Sequence record: NC_054908.1
Origin: Escherichia phage vB_EcoM_DalCa
DNA length: 64,000 nt
Direction: 5' to 3' (one strand)
The position numbers and the translations under genes were made by a program. This document shows positions 18,816-58,419 of this stretch, one piece after another (within the stretch, counting starts at the first letter, position 1; every line of letters starts with the position of its first letter). Below the pieces are notes generated by a model. The model ran no database searches. It was not told the DNA's origin and worked only from the letters and a program-made list of their open reading frames with translations.

Positions 18816-19796
18816 TTATTTCAGAAGAGTAACCTCAGCGATTTCTTCCCAACCGTTTTTGTCGGTCATAATAAAGTCAGCAAGATAAAGTGCAGTACGC
18901 AGTGAAACATTGCGTAAACGATTAACATTAACTTTCATCCATGATAATGCTTTATAAGTTTCTTCATCAGAAAGACCGCGTTTTTGCATCATGTCAGTTG
19001 AAAGAATAACATCTTCAACCCTGACCATAATTTCTTCATTAGTGTGAACACCCAAATCCAAATAAACTGAGCGGGAAACTAATGCTTGTAAATGTGGAGC
19101 AAGTTTAGTACCACGGTCTAATTCGCGGTCAATGTCAACGTTTGTGATAAAAACAATCGTTCCTTTAAATTCAAACTCACGCTCAATGCCTTTTTCTTCT
19201 AAGTAAGAAGATGCGGTGCTCCAGCAGACTTTACGGGTCTCTCCGGTGTCCAGAGCAGCTTTCAGAAGATTAAGAATGTCCATATCAGAGAAAACATCCA
19301 CATCATCAATCAAAAGGACAGAATTCTCTTCACGATTATTCCAAAGCTGTTCATAAAGACCGATACCAGAGATTTTACCATTAATGCTTTTATATTCGAT
19401 GTATCCAATATCATTTGCTTTATTTAAAGCTTTATCTAAAGAATACGTTTTACCAATACCTGCTGCTCCAGAGATAATTAATGAACGAATGTTTCCGTTA
19501 ATAATACCATTCGTCATCATTCCCATAACATTAAATCTTTTATTAATGCGGGTTTTCATATCTTCATACGATTCTTTAACTTCTTCAACTTTTACACCAT
19601 CATATGAAATGTCTGATTTGTAAACCCAAACACCGCGACGCTTACCGTCAATTTCAACAAAAACTTTACCATCTCCTTGTGCATCTACCGGAGCATTATC
19701 TGGGAACCATTCACCTAAGAGCTCAAAAGTTCCAGAGATTTCTTTACCGAAGTAGATACCCTTATTGATAGTTACAGTTTTCATTTTATTCTCCAA
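18816..19796 (-). CDS. Predicted P-loop NTPase (AAA-like)
   Basis: 326 aa; Walker A GAAGIGKT and Walker B-like VLLIDDVD; early-type promoter upstream. Confidence 0.6.
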   Translation of the reverse strand: MENKMKTVTINKGIYFGKEISGTFELLGEWFPDNAPVDAQGDGKVFVEIDGKRRGVWVYKSDISYDGVKVEEVKESYEDMKTRINKRFNVMGMMTNGIINGNIRSLIISGAAGIGKTYSLDKALNKANDIGYIEYKSINGKISGIGLYEQLWNNREENSVLLIDDVDVFSDMDILNLLKAALDTGETRKVCWSTASSYLEEKGIEREFEFKGTIVFITNVDIDRELDRGTKLAPHLQALVSRSVYLDLGVHTNEEIMVRVEDVILSTDMMQKRGLSDEETYKALSWMKVNVNRLRNVSLRTALYLADFIMTDKNGWEEIAEVTLLK

Positions 19797-19820: not shown

Positions 19821-19849
19821 ATAATATCACACTACTACCCTGCTGTAAA
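19821..19849 (-). promoter_or_regulatory. T4 early-type promoter module upstream of P-loop NTPase gene
   Basis: TTGATAGGGTAATAATATCAC...TGTAAACAATTTATTTTA on plus; 17-bp spacing. Confidence 0.5.
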
Positions 19850-19853
19850 CAAT

Positions 19854-20117
19854 TTATTTTAATGTTTGCCAAATTTTTACTGCTTCACGACGAGATACTT
19901 CTACAGCTCCAAGTTCTACAGCTTTTTGGCGTCGCCGAGCGTGTAAGTCATAATGTTTAATGCGTTTATCTTGAAACCAAGAACGTTTCATTCCTATTGC
20001 TTCTGCCATTTCGTGAAGCTCTTCAATATCTCCATCAGTGAACATATGACAATTTTTAGTTGGATGACCGCGAAGTTTCCATCCATGATTCATTAAAACA
20101 TCTACGTAAACTGTCAT
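19854..20117 (-). CDS. Hypothetical protein
   Basis: 87-aa ORF, His/Arg-rich. Confidence 0.5.
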   Translation of the reverse strand: MTVYVDVLMNHGWKLRGHPTKNCHMFTDGDIEELHEMAEAIGMKRSWFQDKRIKHYDLHARRRQKAVELGAVEVSRREAVKIWQTLK

Positions 20118-20299
20118 TGATTCTTCTCCAAATAAGTTTCGATAATTTTCTGGGCGAGATAAACCGCGTTATCTTCAGTTGCGTCTTCCAAGAAACTTTC
20201 AAAACACTCTGAAATTTCTTCTGTATCAATCAACTTTTTTACTTCAATTGGTGTAATTTTCATTTTGTTTTCCGTTTAAGTGTTTGTTTTGATAGTTGT

Positions 20300-20328
20300 A
20301 TAGTACCATAAAGCTTTATGCTTGTAAA
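20300..20328 (-). promoter_or_regulatory. T4 early-type promoter module
   Basis: TTGATAGTTGTATAGTACC...TGTAAACAGTTTTGTGAAAAATTTTT on plus; 17-bp spacing. Confidence 0.5.
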
Positions 20329-20345: not shown

Positions 20346-20376
20346 TTTGAAATAAAAAGGGAGCCCGAAGGCTCCC
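20346..20376 (-). terminator. Intrinsic terminator downstream of nucleotidyltransferase-like gene
   Basis: On minus strand GGGAGCC-UUCG-GGCUCCC followed by UUUUUAUUUC. Confidence 0.65.
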
Positions 20377-20378
20377 TA

Positions 20379-21392
20379 TCATTTATAATAACTTCGGTGG
20401 TTTTCAAGATAGACCTTCTCAAGGAAGTCATCCCAGAAACTCATGTCTACTGTTTTAGGCATACCGTTCTTAGAAGCTTCAATAGATGCTGCTTCTACTT
20501 GATCGACCACATCTTCCAAAAACTCTTGAACCGTTTTAAATGGATGTTTACCCAACTTCACGTCGAGAATAAATGGAGCATCTTGGAGTGGATAAACCAA
20601 GTCACCAGTTTTGTAAATTTCCAATAGTTGGAGTCCACCACGGCAAGCATGACTCAGAGCTTTCCAGTCAATACCTTCATTGGCTTCGGCCTTACGAGCA
20701 CGTTCACCATATTCAGCATCTAATTTGTTCAGTGACTGCTTAAGCTCAATAAGAGAAAGCGTTGTCTGATATTTACGACCCAACACAGTGTAGAACGTTT
20801 GTGGGCCTGTTTTCTCATGATTATGGAACACCCATTCACAGAATTCGTTTTCTGGAAGACGATGCTTAATATCTTCAACTTTAGTGCGACGCTGCTTAAT
20901 AGAACCATCTTCTTGGTAATCAATCCACTGCTCAGGGATTTGATTAACTACTTTCAATACATCACGTAATGCAGCCAAACGAGAACCCTTGACACCGTAT
21001 TTAGAAGCTTGCTTGCGGACATATCCTAAATAGGATTTCATGTTAGTCGTATAAAAACGAGAACGGTTGTCTTGAATAAACTTCCACACATCAGGCAAAT
21101 CAGATTTAACCACTAGTTCAGGTGGAGTGTGAAGCATATCCAATGCTACAGTTTCACCATCTGCTGCTAATTTAAAGAAATATTTAAGACTGTATAGTTC
21201 ATGGTCAATATCATCTTTAGTGTTTTTAGATGATGTGTTGTTAGTGTTTTTACTCATGTGCTCTTTGACATTTCCGATAAGAATATCACGAGCAGGAGGA
21301 ACAAAAATTTCTTTAAAATCTACATCAGATTCTGGGGTAGAAGTTCCATAAAGATGACTACCAAAATAGCTTTTCATTACTGTTTTCATCAT
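20379..21392 (-). CDS. Predicted nucleotidyltransferase-fold protein (Pol-beta superfamily-like)
   Basis: 337 aa; N-terminal GSHLYGTSTPESDVDF matches the GS...D.D nucleotidyltransferase signature; strong terminator hairpin downstream. Confidence 0.55.
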   Translation of the reverse strand: MMKTVMKSYFGSHLYGTSTPESDVDFKEIFVPPARDILIGNVKEHMSKNTNNTSSKNTKDDIDHELYSLKYFFKLAADGETVALDMLHTPPELVVKSDLPDVWKFIQDNRSRFYTTNMKSYLGYVRKQASKYGVKGSRLAALRDVLKVVNQIPEQWIDYQEDGSIKQRRTKVEDIKHRLPENEFCEWVFHNHEKTGPQTFYTVLGRKYQTTLSLIELKQSLNKLDAEYGERARKAEANEGIDWKALSHACRGGLQLLEIYKTGDLVYPLQDAPFILDVKLGKHPFKTVQEFLEDVVDQVEAASIEASKNGMPKTVDMSFWDDFLEKVYLENHRSYYK

Positions 21393-21856
21393 TCAGCCTT
21401 ATATTCAATAACAGGACATACTTTAGCTTTACGAGCTTTTAAAAATTCAACGATAATCGATTTCTTGGGTTGAATAGGAGGTAAACCTTTATACGCCCTA
21501 TCAATATTTTCTATGTGTAAAGCATAATCCTTTTTCCATTTATAATCTTTATATTTTTCATGCAAATGTGCAGGAATAACAAATGAACCGATAATAAGTA
21601 AAACAACCAAAAGTGCAAGTATAAATGCCGATGGAAGAAGAGTCCATAAACTACCGAAAATAAGCCAACGTTGTAAGCTTTCTGCACAAATAATTGTTAG
21701 CCCTACGAGTATAGCACATCCAAAAATAGAAACGAAAAATGTAGGAATGGCAATAGACCAAAAATATGCGCATAGTGTCTTAGGTCGTTGCCATTCATCG
21801 TTAAACAATTTGAATAATTTATAGTGCCAAGAGTTTTCATTAATAACCATAATCAT
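21389..21856 (-). CDS. Hypothetical polytopic membrane protein
   Basis: 155 aa; three or more hydrophobic helices. Confidence 0.5.
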   Translation of the reverse strand: MIMVINENSWHYKLFKLFNDEWQRPKTLCAYFWSIAIPTFFVSIFGCAILVGLTIICAESLQRWLIFGSLWTLLPSAFILALLVVLLIIGSFVIPAHLHEKYKDYKWKKDYALHIENIDRAYKGLPPIQPKKSIIVEFLKARKAKVCPVIEYKAE

Positions 21857-21858
21857 AA

Positions 21859-22380
21859 TTATCCTTTCATTGAAGGCGTAACGGTTGTTAAATACTTAAT
21901 CATAGCTTCAGCTTCTGATTTTGATAATGAAATTTCTCCATTGTTTTGACGAATAGAAATAAAATCCGGATGACGGTCACCACCAGCTTTTAAAACACAC
22001 ATATAAGTATCAGTTTCACCTTCAATATTTGAAATGATTGAAGCAGTTCCACATGAATGCGGTTTTTGATAAATCAATGCAGCTTTTCTTCCGCCATTTG
22101 ACTGCTCATAGGCTTTTAATACATCAAGCAAATCAGTTCTTTTATCAATAGCTAAAATGTTATTTTCATCTTCAATGTTAAATCCTTCGGATACTTCATA
22201 AAGTGTTACCCATAAATCACCAATGTCAATAACAGCATTTACTTTTCCACGGCTTTCAAGAGTATGACAAATTTTCTTGATTTCGTCATAACTCATTTTA
22301 ATAATATCATCTCCTTGACTAAGGAAGATGTCATTTTTAAATTCAACACGAATTAAACCGCTTCCACTTGAAATAAACAT
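21859..22380 (-). CDS. Hypothetical protein (paralog of 22387..22932)
   Basis: 173 aa; shares FNIEDE and a C-terminal motif with its neighbour. Confidence 0.5.
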   Translation of the reverse strand: MFISSGSGLIRVEFKNDIFLSQGDDIIKMSYDEIKKICHTLESRGKVNAVIDIGDLWVTLYEVSEGFNIEDENNILAIDKRTDLLDVLKAYEQSNGGRKAALIYQKPHSCGTASIISNIEGETDTYMCVLKAGGDRHPDFISIRQNNGEISLSKSEAEAMIKYLTTVTPSMKG

Positions 22381-22386
22381 ATTTCC

Positions 22387-22932
22387 TCACTTTGAAATCA
22401 TAGTTGGAATGACAGAATCAAGATAAGTCTTTAGCGCAATAGCTTCGTCTTTGGTAAATGTGACAATATGTGCTCGAAAATCATCAATTTGACGAATAGT
22501 TAAGACATCTCCATCTTCATAACATTTTGATACGTTTAAAACAGTTTCATCATTCTGATTGCAAGCGTTAGTAATAATAGCATTGCAATTTTTAAACCAT
22601 TTTAAACTATGTTTTCTTTCATTAGAATAATAAAAATATTTAATCTTATCTATAAAACTATCCCAATGGATAACTGATAAGCATATTGACTCGCTTTCAA
22701 TATTAAATCCTGGGCATGAAGAATAAAAATGAATTTTATGCTCATCATTAATGCTTACAATTTTATCAGTATAAGGATTTTCAATTTTGGTTAAATGAAT
22801 GATTTCACTAGGCGTAAAATACAGCATATCGTCTTCTTGTGTCAAACGATACATATTATTTACTTTTTCTATAGCCAATTCACCAAAAAGTGAACTAACT
22901 TCTAATACTAATCGTTTCGCCTCGCTCATCAT
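22387..22932 (-). CDS. Hypothetical protein (paralog of 21859..22380)
   Basis: 181 aa; FNIESE and C-terminal ...LKTYLDSVIPTMISK similar to the neighbour. Confidence 0.5.
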   Translation of the reverse strand: MMSEAKRLVLEVSSLFGELAIEKVNNMYRLTQEDDMLYFTPSEIIHLTKIENPYTDKIVSINDEHKIHFYSSCPGFNIESESICLSVIHWDSFIDKIKYFYYSNERKHSLKWFKNCNAIITNACNQNDETVLNVSKCYEDGDVLTIRQIDDFRAHIVTFTKDEAIALKTYLDSVIPTMISK

Positions 22933-23064: not shown

Positions 23065-23093
23065 ACTATATCATAACCTTGCCAACTTGTAAA
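23065..23093 (-). promoter_or_regulatory. Candidate T4 early-type promoter upstream of 22387..22932
   Basis: Minus -35 TTTACA, 17-bp spacer, -10 TATAGT. Confidence 0.4.
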
Positions 23094-36646: not shown

Positions 36647-36722
36647 TGGTCGAGGCAGTAGGGATCGAACCTACGACCTAGGACTTAGAAGGTCCTTGCT
36701 CTTCCTTCTGAGCTATGCCCCG
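36647..36722 (-). tRNA. tRNA-Arg (anticodon UCU), CCA encoded
   Basis: Manual fold of reverse complement: 7-bp acceptor stem, anticodon arm AGGAC-CUUCUAA-GUCCU, T-arm GTAGG-TTCGATC-CCTAC; 76 nt. Confidence 0.8.
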
Positions 36723-36726
36723 TAAT

Positions 36727-36802
36727 TGGGGTGACCGATGGGAGTCGAACCCATGACTACGAGAATCACAATCTCGAGTTCTACCAACTGAACTACGGCC
36801 AC
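36727..36802 (-). tRNA. tRNA-His (anticodon GUG), CCA encoded
   Basis: Manual fold: D-stem GTTC/GAAC, anticodon arm CGAGA-UUGUGAU-UCUCG, T-arm ATGGG-TTCGACT-CCCAT, discriminator C; not part of the 8-tRNA T4 set. Confidence 0.75.
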
Positions 36803-36916
36803 ATTAATACCTACTCCAACAATCAAGATGTCTTCACACGAAATTAAGAGAAGAGTGATCAGTTCAACCCCTATAATCGCGTCAAGTAGATATTAATGTG
36901 ACAGTTGTCACAAATT

Positions 36917-36991
36917 TGGCGGACGTGATAGGATTCGAACCTATAACCAATCGCTTAACAGGCGATCGCTCTGCCATTGAGCTACACATCC
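36917..36991 (-). tRNA. tRNA-Asn (anticodon GUU), CCA encoded
   Basis: Manual fold: anticodon arm ATCGC-CUGUUAA-GCGAT, T-arm with GGTTCGAATCC; not part of the T4 set. Confidence 0.75.
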
Positions 36992-36995
36992 AAAT

Positions 36996-37082
36996 TGGTG
37001 GGGAGTGGTGGAGTCGAACCACCCGAGTCGCAATGACAATGGATTTACAGTCCACACCGCTACCTCTACGGGATAACTCCCC
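36996..37082 (-). tRNA. tRNA-Tyr (anticodon GUA), class II long variable arm, CCA encoded
   Basis: Manual fold: acceptor GGGGAGT/ACTCCCC, anticodon loop CUGUAAA, long variable arm, T-arm GGTGG-TTCGACT-CCACC; 87 nt; not part of the T4 set. Confidence 0.7.
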
Positions 37083-37091
37083 AAATTAATT

Positions 37092-37166
37092 TGGTGGCCC
37101 TGGGTGGAATTGAACCACCATCTGGCGATTATGAGTCGCTTGCTTGAACCTTCCAGCTACAGGGCC
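37092..37166 (-). tRNA. tRNA with anticodon CAU (Met or lysidine-modified Ile), CCA encoded
   Basis: Manual fold: acceptor GGCCCTG/CAGGGCC, anticodon loop CUCAUAA, T-arm GGTGG-TTCAATT-CCACC; cannot separate Met from Ile(LAU) by eye. Confidence 0.65.
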
Positions 37167-37167
37167 T

Positions 37168-37243
37168 TGGTGCTGATTGACGGAATCGAACCGCCGACCT
37201 TCTCATTACAAGTGAGTTGCTCTACCTACTGAGCTAAATCAGC
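37168..37243 (-). tRNA. tRNA-Thr (anticodon UGU), CCA encoded
   Basis: Manual fold: acceptor GCTGATT/AATCAGC, anticodon loop CUUGUAA, T-loop TTCGATT. Confidence 0.75.
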
Positions 37244-37248
37244 AAAAC

Positions 37249-37338
37249 TGGCGGAGGCGATAGGATTTGAACCTATGAGTCGCCGGAGCGACTGCCGGTT
37301 TTCAAGACCGGTGCATTAAACCACTCTGCCACGCCTCC
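37249..37338 (-). tRNA. tRNA-Ser (anticodon UGA), class II, CCA encoded
   Basis: Manual fold: acceptor GGAGGCG/CGCCTCC, anticodon arm CCGGT-CUUGAAA-ACCGG, long variable arm; 90 nt. Confidence 0.8.
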
Positions 37339-37340
37339 AG

Positions 37341-37414
37341 TCTCCGTGGCAGGATTTGAACCTACGACATTCTACTCCCAAAGCAGACGCTCTACCAAAC
37401 TGAGCTACACGGAG
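37341..37414 (-). tRNA. tRNA-Pro (anticodon UGG), CCA not encoded
   Basis: Manual fold: acceptor CTCCGTG/CACGGAG, anticodon loop UUUGGGA, T-loop TTCAAAT; 3' end abuts tRNA-Ser 5' end, consistent with the T4-type Pro-Ser dimeric precursor. Confidence 0.75.
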
Positions 37415-37424
37415 TAAATTAAAT

Positions 37425-37498
<74 letters not shown>

Positions 37499-37503
37499 AA
37501 ATT

Positions 37504-37590
37504 TGGTGCGAGAAGTGGGACTCGAACCCACAAGGAAATCATTCCGCAGCATTTTAAGTGCTGTGCCTTTACCAATTTGGCCATTCTCGC
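37504..37590 (-). tRNA. tRNA-Leu (anticodon UAA), class II, CCA encoded
   Basis: Manual fold: acceptor GCGAGAA/TTCTCGC, anticodon arm CAGCA-CUUAAAA-UGCUG, long variable arm; 87 nt. Confidence 0.8.
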
Positions 37591-37591
37591 G

Positions 37592-37664
37592 CTGGGAATA
37601 AAGGACTCGAACCTTTGCATCCTGGAATCAAAATCCAGTGCCTTACCAACTTGGCTAATTCCCA
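37592..37664 (-). tRNA. tRNA-Gln (anticodon UUG), CCA not encoded
   Basis: Manual fold: acceptor TGGGAAT/ATTCCCA (U1-A72), anticodon arm CTGGA-UUUUGAU-TCCAG, T-arm AAAGG-TTCGAGT-CCTTT; 3' end abuts tRNA-Leu as in the T4 Gln-Leu dimeric precursor. Confidence 0.75.
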
Positions 37665-55357: not shown

Positions 55358-56904
55358 GTAACAATACATATCAGCACGTATCAAATGAATCAAAATATGT
55401 TAAATTCGATCCTACTGGATCGAATTTTCCTGGCACTGTTACGACAGTACAGTCTGCATTATCAAAAATAAGTAATATCGGCGTAAATGGTATTCCTGAT
55501 GCAACTATGGAAGTTAAAGGAATAGCAATGATTGCGTCAGAACAAGAGGTTTTAGATGGAACTAATAATTCTAAAATCGTTACACCAGCTACATTAGCAA
55601 CAAGATTATTGTATCCAAATGCTACTGAAACTAAATATGGTTTAACGCGTTATTCAACAAATGAAGAAACATTAAAAGGCTCAGATAATAATTCATCAAT
55701 AACACCACAAAAACTGAAATACCACACTGACGATGTGTTCAAAAATAGATATTCGTCTGAGTCATCAAACGGGGTTATTAAAATATCATCTACACCTGCA
55801 GCTTTGGCTGGAGTTGATGATACTACTGCGATGACTCCGCTAAAAACCCAAAAACTTGCAATAAAATTAATTTCGCAAATAGCTCCTTCAGAAGACACTG
55901 CAACAGAATCGGTGAGAGGAGTAGTTCAATTATCTACTGTTGCACAAATTCGTCAAGGAACTCTCCGCGAAGGATATGCAATTTCCCCGTATACCTTTAT
56001 GAATTCTGTTGCAACACATGAATATAAGGGTGTTATACGCCTAGGAACGCAGACTGAAATTAATAATAATTTGGGTGGTGTTGCAGTAACAGGTGAAACA
56101 CTAAATGGTCGAGGAGCTACCGGTTCTATGCGTGGAGTAGTTAAATTAACGACGCAAGCCGGTATTGCCCCTGAAGGTGATAGCTCTGGAGCATTAGCAT
56201 GGAACGCAGATGTAATTAATACTCGTGGTGGACAAACTATTAATGGTTCTTTAAATTTAGACCATCTTACAGCAAATGGAATTTGGTCACGCGGTGGAAT
56301 GTGGAAAAATGGCGATCAACCTGTTGCCACTGAAAGATATGCGTCCGAACGAGTTCCGGTTGGAACTATTATGATGTTTGCGGGTGATTCAGCACCTCCA
56401 GGTTGGATTATGTGTCATGGTGGAACCGTGTCAGGTGACCAATTTCCTGATTATAGAAACGTAGTTGGAACAAGATTTGGTGGCGATTGGAATAATCCTG
56501 GCGTTCCTGATATGCGAGGTCTTTTCGTCAGAGGAGCCGGCACAGGCGGTCATATTTTAAATCAACGAGGACAAGATGGTTATGGAAAGGATAGACTTGG
56601 CGTAGGATGTGACGGAATGCATGTTGGTGGTGTTCAAGCACAACAAATGTCATACCATAAACACGCCGGTGGTTGGGGGGAATATAACAGAAGTGAAGGC
56701 CCATTTGGCGCGTCTGTTTATCAAGGATATCTTGGAACTAGAAAATATTCCGACTGGGATAATGCTTCATACTTCACTAATGATGGATTTGAATTAGGCG
56801 GACCGAGAGATGCCCTTGGTACACTTAATCGTGAAGGATTAATTGGTTATGAAACTAGACCATGGAATATATCATTAAACTATATTATTAAAGTTCATTA
56901 CTAA
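55354..56904 (+). CDS. 12: Short tail fiber protein gp12
   Basis: 516 aa; T4 synteny; repetitive Gly/Thr-rich fibrous sequence. Confidence 0.9.

Positions 56905-58419
<1,515 letters not shown>

Follow-up and report, generated by a model that had tools for sequence, protein, structure and literature searches.

T4 NrdC.11 as a divergent long-form member of the RlaP nucleotidyltransferase lineage and a candidate RNA 3′-end nucleotide adder

The repair of tRNAs by Pnkp and Rnl1 of phage T4 is the founding example of RNA repair, and whether phages can also reverse the action of nucleotide-excising anticodon nucleases such as RloC has been a question standing since 2008–2012. RloC excises the wobble nucleotide, and most of the tRNA that the T4 repair enzymes produce from its products is without it (PMC3458546). 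Phage RlaP proteins have been predicted to restore nucleotides ahead of ligation (Iyer et al. 2021; PMC7824862), and two bacterial RlaPs have been assayed. PfRlaP and PaRlaP, from Pseudomonas fluorescens and P. aeruginosa, add one or two nucleoside monophosphates (NMP, or dNMP) to an RNA 3′-OH, are stimulated by Mn2+ and do not act on DNA or protein, leaving E. coli proteins unlabelled (PMC12776372). They favour the 5′ half of a cleaved tRNA, with the break in the anticodon loop preferred over the acceptor 3′ end, show little nucleoside triphosphate (NTP) specificity in vitro and give a partial rescue of aminoacylation of repaired tRNA minus one anticodon-loop nucleotide (PMC12776372). The same December 2025 preprint places T4 NrdC.11 in cluster 5 of its RlaP sequence similarity network (SSN), as a protein "of unknown function" (PMC12776372). 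Here we examine the orthologue of T4 nrdC.11 in a 64,000-nucleotide stretch of Escherichia phage vB_EcoM_DalCa (NC_054908.1), below called the window, which is a segment of a Tequatrovirus (T4-like) genome.

Its sequence places NrdC.11 in the RlaP (PF10127) lineage of the Pol-beta superfamily of nucleotidyltransferases (NTases), as a divergent member that we call the "long form". We propose, with a probability of roughly 55%, that it adds nucleotides to RNA 3′-OH ends alongside Pnkp and Rnl1, as an accessory, dispensable and probably early counter-defence function. The identity of the gene, its NTase label, the RlaP assignment and the RNA-repair hypothesis are all already in the literature, and the window adds no new kind of element. 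What we add is that the long form of the T4 clade is structurally distinct and holds an as yet uncharacterised insert, that RNA-repair islands of cells contain members of this very clade and not just of RlaP at large, and that the widespread GenBank label "thioredoxin" is an error. More than 1,500 sequenced phage genomes carry the gene, which still awaits experimental characterisation even in the best-studied phage; its product is the evident candidate for the step, so far missing, that would restore nucleotides.

The earlier note on this DNA, made from the letters alone, described an early gene at 20379-21392 whose product has a Pol-beta-type NTase signature. The ORF listing and a strict form of the motif confirm this signature in a 337-amino-acid (aa) minus-strand open reading frame (ORF) at these coordinates. 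The gene and the four parts of its predicted product are as follows.

20379..21392, minus strand: coding sequence of the nrdC.11 orthologue, 337 aa from the first ATG, stop codon at 20379-20381
21039..21392, minus strand: N-terminal Pol-beta-type NTase core, residues 1-118 (Pfam, hhalign and model, strand E3-10 through helix H110-113)
20940..21038, minus strand: long connecting helix, residues 119-151 (model H119-151), with K131 at least 90% conserved and Y132 invariant
20754..20939, minus strand: clade-specific beta-rich insert, residues ~152-213, with the signature LPxxE...FYxVxGrKfQxT
20382..20753, minus strand: C-terminal helical bundle, residues 214-337, with invariant K244-x3-H248-x2-R251 (20640-20663) and P268

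The protein begins MMKTVMKSYFGSHLYGTSTPESDVDF in the ORF listing and shares 326 of 336 residues (97%) with T4 NrdC.11 (NP_049709.1). At the DNA level the interval is 99.9% identical to gp099 of Citrobacter phage PhiZZ23, annotated "nucleotidyltransferase", and 731 phage records match it. The protein also matches PHROG 388 "nucleotidyltransferase" (E 5.8e-138); RefSeq names T4 NrdC.11 "nucleotidyltransferase", another name being "uncharacterized 38.9 kDa protein", and a match of nrdC.11 orthologues to COG3541 was reported by Nolan et al. 2006 (PMC1524935). The earlier note had not recognised the T4 protein and held that identification as a known T4 protein of unrelated function would speak against its reading; the T4 counterpart turns out to carry the NTase label already. 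Other labels are in circulation: a large share of GenBank phage records call this gene "thioredoxin", and in at least one it appears as "putative HNH homing endonuclease". Neither annotation is correct, the former having been propagated from the gene symbol nrdC.11. The start codon probably also needs adjusting. An AAGG Shine–Dalgarno sequence lies 4 nt ahead of the first ATG (21392), which overlaps the stop codon of the upstream gene, and 7 nt ahead of the second (21389). Because this spacing favours the second ATG, the true start is probably at 21389, giving the 336 aa annotated in T4 and PhiZZ23.

The NTase signature consists of F10-G11-S12, ten further residues and D23-V24-D25-F, and fits the strict pattern hG[GS]x9-13Dh[DE]h. 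The looser pattern G[SG]-x(9-13)-D-x-[DE] occurs three times among the 129 ATG-initiated ORFs of at least 60 aa in the window, two of the occurrences being in an unrelated 601-aa protein, and taken alone it is weak, non-discriminating evidence. Stronger evidence comes from the family profile: Pfam PF10127 (RlaP) matches with E 3.9e-11. At 43.6 bits the match clears the gathering score of 23 and places the protein in RlaP, a subfamily classification of the kind that the earlier note had asked for; it covers residues 7-135 only, aligned to profile positions 23-142 of 249. To collect homologues, we scanned 1.84 billion cluster representatives with HMMER, which gave 834 clusters with E values up to 1e-30; among the matches listed, those with the top scores extend over nearly the full length. 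Alignment A1, made from the window protein and 101 representatives at 34-54% identity (102 sequences), has twelve invariant residues: G11, S12, S22, D23, D25, N57, D63, Y132, K244, H248, R251 and P268. Those assigned to the active site map as follows.

21357..21362, minus strand: G11-S12, the NTase "GS" motif, invariant in A1 and aligned with SGS of canonical RlaP
21318..21326, minus strand: D23-V24-D25, with the first two metal-binding carboxylates, invariant in A1 and aligned with RlaP D39/D41
21204..21206, minus strand: D63, the probable third catalytic carboxylate, invariant in A1 and aligned with the invariant RlaP D72

The Pol-beta-superfamily active site, G11-S12, D23-x-D25 and D63, is thus predicted to be intact, D63 lying on strand E62-68 of the structural model. 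The T4 reference NrdC.11 (NC_000866 55435-56445; locus L162, 1136-2146) has Asn at position 61 in the numbering of the window protein, a position at which Asp is found in the window protein itself and in at least 90% of the family; the T4 entry further includes an ambiguous residue (X), and its D63 is intact.

AlphaFold2 run on A1 returned a confident model (predicted local distance difference test score 94.6, predicted template modelling score 0.82). It divides into the four parts listed above, an alpha/beta NTase core (~1-118), a long helix (119-151), a beta-rich module (~152-213) and a helical bundle (214-337), and predicts the alpha/beta NTase core fold to be present. Its structural neighbours are NTases only. 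Together with the Pfam match and the invariant catalytic residues, the model upholds the fold proposed from the N-terminal signature. Sequence searches of the PDB with the window protein, the 102-sequence profile and a canonical-RlaP profile found no relative.

The structural neighbours bear on three other readings. They are of the kanamycin nucleotidyltransferase (KNTase)/HalB type and not class I or II CCA-adding enzymes, which speaks against repair of the tRNA acceptor end, that is, restoration of CCA on toxin-trimmed tRNAs or maturation of phage tRNAs without an encoded CCA. In its favour, the window holds 11 phage tRNA genes, CCA-adding enzymes belong to the same superfamily, and jumbo phages use such enzymes in this way (PMC7824862). 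Among Pfam models, however, only RlaP passes, with no CCA-adding or PolyA_pol match, and the window protein does not combine a PolyA_pol head-domain match with the neck/body/tail architecture. T4 tRNAs, moreover, rely on the host cca enzyme. With RlaP also less reactive on the acceptor-end strand of a tRNA mimic (PMC12776372), we regard this role as improbable.

A second reading takes the likeness to HalB at face value. Hailong HalB (PDB 9dbh/9dbj) synthesises oligo-dA on a Tyr primer and has the HalA channel as its partner, and a HalB-like or signalling NTase in the phage could make an oligonucleotide or nucleotide signal de novo, for example a decoy keeping a Hailong-type DNA-gated channel closed or disturbing the nucleotide signalling of the host. 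The identity to HalB is only 15%, with Foldseek E of at least 1e-2 and no Pfam or PADLOC relation. The resemblance is one of NTase-plus-helical-domain architecture, which is common also to KNTase and to 3c18. NrdC.11 has no PADLOC match, the neighbour clustering described below gave no HalA-like partner among the recurrent neighbour families, and the recurrent neighbours are instead RNA-repair genes. We therefore attach very little weight to this possibility. A CD-NTase/cGAS-like signalling NTase, as in cyclic oligonucleotide-based antiphage signalling systems (CBASS), was also considered and rejected, with no Pfam or PADLOC match and neighbours that are not effectors. The PADLOC defence models likewise matched neither NrdC.10 nor the DUF4031 protein, two products of neighbouring genes.

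Third, the protein could nucleotidylylate a protein or small molecule, as do MntA-type antitoxins and aminoglycoside NTases, and so inactivate a host toxin or metabolite. The structural likeness to KNTase/ANT(4′) and to components of MNT-HEPN systems, as well as a faint NCBIfam MntA match (E 0.061), point this way. The MntA match reaches only 13.2 bits where the cut-off is 60, and a search for the HEPN partner or domain suggested in the earlier note came back empty: there is no R-x4-6-H motif in the protein and no adjacent HEPN gene. ANT(4′) and the "nucleotidyltransferase-like protein" 3c18 show 8-11% identity, have a small-molecule substrate and lack the beta insert. Given also that E. coli proteins stay unlabelled by the assayed RlaP (PMC12776372), nucleotidylylation of this kind is most unlikely.

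The detectable relationship to canonical RlaP is confined to the N-terminal half. Canonical RlaPs (~255 aa) were recovered as neighbours of the cellular homologues described below and match the Pfam model over its full length (5.9e-81), whereas the 337-aa NrdC.11 covers the model over 120 of its 249 positions. An hhalign comparison of A1 with canonical RlaP aligned residues 7-133 (probability 93.8%, E 1.7e-7) and paired D23, D25 and D63 with RlaP D39, D41 and D72. The two forms thus share an SG[S]...SDxD...D NTase core that aligns residue for residue, and canonical RlaP likewise continues into a helical C-terminal domain; detectable homology covers only residues 7-133/135, the core plus the start of the next helix. 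Both also contain a helix with an invariant K-x3-[H/Y]-x2-R pattern, with H in NrdC.11 and Y in canonical RlaP. Sub-profiles of the C-terminal part pair K244/H248/R251 with RlaP K149/Y153/R156 in a weak match (E 0.06), which is not significant, and we do not claim homology of the C-terminal domains. The beta-rich insert of ~60 aa interrupts the helical bundle of NrdC.11 and is absent from the canonical proteins; we found no structural relative of it in the PDB. The two forms also differ in their distribution among phages, the short RlaP occurring only in jumbo phages (86 records) and the long form in 1,517 records.

To place the clade in its cellular context, we scanned 185,579 species genomes with the peptide pattern DWKAx[SH]HAxR and obtained 80 cellular loci (L004-L083) whose homologues are full-length and 33-54% identical. 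Mb-scale chromosomal contigs from Desulfobacterales, Nitrospirota and Alphaproteobacteria are among them. The cellular long forms retain the insert, D23 (79 of 80) and D25 (80 of 80). The invariance of K244, H248 and R251 in this set is circular, because the search pattern contained these residues, and the independent evidence for it is alignment A1.

Neighbours within 6 kb were identified by neighbour clustering, Pfam scans and iterative hidden Markov model searches. RtcB was found at 11 of the 80 loci, bacterial Pnkp-ligase at 8, Ro/TROVE at 5 and RtcA at 2. For T4-type Pnkp there were matches to 12 ORFs spread over 10 loci, most of them to the kinase-phosphatase portion of the Pnkp-ligase proteins already counted, and T4-type Rnl1 was found at 2 loci, the one in L049 being inside the same ORF as a Pnkp-ligase match. 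A canonical short RlaP lies directly downstream on the same strand at 17-23 of the 80 loci (e.g. L036 5986-7743 and L019 6001-7727), and in these tandem pairs both the long NTase and the short RlaP keep their catalytic residues. The island of L036, from Nitrosospira, contains Ro, RtcB, RtcA, the long NTase, the short RlaP and then Pnkp; in L007 the long NTase forms a compact cassette with Pnkp and Rnl1. Altogether, at least one RNA-repair gene occurs within 6 kb at about a quarter of the cellular loci; by our own informal estimate, this linkage is far above chance for a single-copy gene in a multi-Mb genome. Canonical RlaP is, like the NrdC.11 clade, associated with RtcB, RtcA and Pnkp RNA-repair operons.

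These observations narrow the earlier suggestion of a modifier of nucleic acids, proteins or signalling nucleotides. Because of the RlaP family membership, the assayed RlaP chemistry and the RNA-repair operons of the cellular relatives, we infer RNA 3′ ends as the target, while the protein and signalling options are disfavoured. NrdC.11 would act on broken tRNA ends between end-healing by Pnkp, in which the 2′,3′-cyclic phosphate is removed and the 5′-OH phosphorylated, and sealing by Rnl1. The nucleotide or nucleotides that it re-adds would replace what was lost to a nucleotide-excising anticodon nuclease, plausibly RloC. The partner enzymes are present in such phages: the near-identical genome of PhiZZ23 encodes Pnkp, Rnl1 and Rnl2.

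The same RNA chemistry could serve a general 3′-tailing enzyme, which would place short untemplated tails on host or phage transcripts or tRNAs and alter their stability or function, for example by promoting host mRNA decay or blocking 3′ exonucleases. RlaPs do label rRNA, full-length tRNA and tRNA fragments in total E. coli RNA with any NTP (PMC12776372), and in T4-like phages nrdC.11 is unlinked to the ligase and Pnkp genes. The cellular homologues of the clade are nevertheless embedded in RtcB, Pnkp, Ro and RtcA islands, and the assayed RlaP prefers a broken anticodon loop to the acceptor 3′ end (PMC12776372). We consider tailing in place of repair unlikely.

Several points weigh against nucleotide re-addition during tRNA repair. 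The activity proposed for the NrdC.11 clade is carried over from assayed RlaPs outside it. Its C-terminal half does not align significantly with that of the assayed RlaP and, because only residues 7-133 align with the canonical proteins, the substrate specificity could differ. The low NTP specificity of RlaP, if shared by NrdC.11, would leave faithful restoration of the wobble base unexplained. Only about a quarter of the cellular loci carry the RNA-repair linkage, and the co-occurrence of long form and short RlaP at 17-23 of the 80 implies that their roles are non-identical. On the phage side, T4-like genomes show no linkage of nrdC.11 with genes for RNA ligase or Pnkp. Of 78 related viral loci, 2 have an RNA ligase within 8 kb and 1 has RtcB, which makes 3 with Rnl or RtcB in all; in the near-identical genome of PhiZZ23, Rnl2, Pnkp and Rnl1 are encoded far from nrdC.11. 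Finally, T4 tolerates a deletion from nrdC.11 to mobD.3 and the gene is dispensable on laboratory hosts, which fits an accessory role yet yields no phenotype (PMC9825161).

A more specific and tentative suggestion, which we hold to be less likely than not, is that the long form is a functionally distinct RlaP-derived enzyme whose insert recognises the broken anticodon stem-loop. T4-like phages could then re-add the excised wobble nucleotide, and Pnkp with Rnl1 could undo the damage of RloC-type "smart" anticodon nucleases. If true, this would add a third enzyme reaction to the classical T4 pathway of tRNA repair and would account for cells keeping long and short RlaP side by side.

In the window, nrdC.11 is predicted to be the last gene of its transcription unit, because a terminator-like hairpin begins 1 nt after its stop codon (terminator scan and sequence reading). 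The elements delimiting the unit are the following.

20358..20377, minus strand: intrinsic-terminator-like hairpin, 8 bp with 6 G-C pairs, GGGAGCC-TTCG-GGCTCCC, then TTTTTATTT
23065..23093, minus strand: candidate early-type sigma-70 promoter, TTTACA-17-TATAGT with extended TG, a 10/12 match to consensus only

The stem of the hairpin is a perfect 8-bp palindrome between two T- or A-rich runs, and the hairpin receives a terminator score for either strand. The promoter at 23093..23065 is the nearest strong early-type one upstream, and the terminator scan found no minus-strand terminator between it and position 20377. The unit likely comprises two y05I-like paralogues, a 155-aa membrane protein and nrdC.11, and expression of nrdC.11 as an early gene from the candidate promoter is plausible. 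A MotA-box middle promoter was sought upstream and rejected, with only imperfect TGCTTnA matches lacking a proper -10 element. Downstream of the hairpin, further early-type promoters lie at 20328..20300 and 19849..19821.

The upstream genes (21389-22932, minus strand) encode the predicted 155-aa membrane protein and the two tandem y05I-like paralogues (PF24449/PF24448). The stop codon of the membrane protein gene overlaps the nrdC.11 start codon, and this protein is the most constant viral neighbour, present at 43 of the 78 viral loci, followed by NrdC.10 at 34 and NrdC.9 at 33. T4 has nrdC.11 on the same strand and at the corresponding place in the early region, with nrdC.10 to one side and rI/tk to the other, and differs on both flanks. 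Upstream (compared over T4 56429-57828), the mobD HNH homing endonuclease gene overlaps the nrdC.11 start codon, where the window phage has the membrane protein and the y05I-like pair; downstream, T4 has a 115-bp gap, where a 49-aa ORF and a DUF4031 gene are inserted in the window phage. None of NrdC.10, NrdC.9, y05I, the membrane protein and DUF4031 occurs at the 80 cellular loci. Because the phage-side neighbours are absent there, phage synteny is no evidence of functional partnership. NrdC.10 in particular was rejected as a partner, being absent from the cellular loci and separated from nrdC.11 here by the terminator and promoters.

The window also contains features outside the nrdC.11 unit. 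The 11 tRNA genes lie at 36647-37664 on the minus strand and are those for Arg, His, Asn, Tyr, Met(CAT), Thr, Ser, Pro, Gly, Leu and Gln. This set is presumably larger than the eight of T4, adding Tyr, His and Asn. At least one of these, tRNA-Tyr, is reported to be attacked by a host defence nuclease, a defence that phage-encoded tRNAs are able to get round (PMC11555353).

Between nrdC.11 and nrdC.10, at 19854-20263 on the minus strand, an 87-aa DUF4031 protein (Pfam 1.1e-21) and the 49-aa ORF have their own early-type promoter at 20328..20300. DUF4031 occurs at 8 of the 78 related viral loci, at varying positions, and looks like a mobile accessory gene. NrdC.10 itself (18816-19796, minus strand) is a P-loop ATPase, with AAA/STAND-type Pfam matches only below threshold. 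Its listed TTG start is probably wrong, an ATG four codons downstream (MKTVTINK) being the likelier one.

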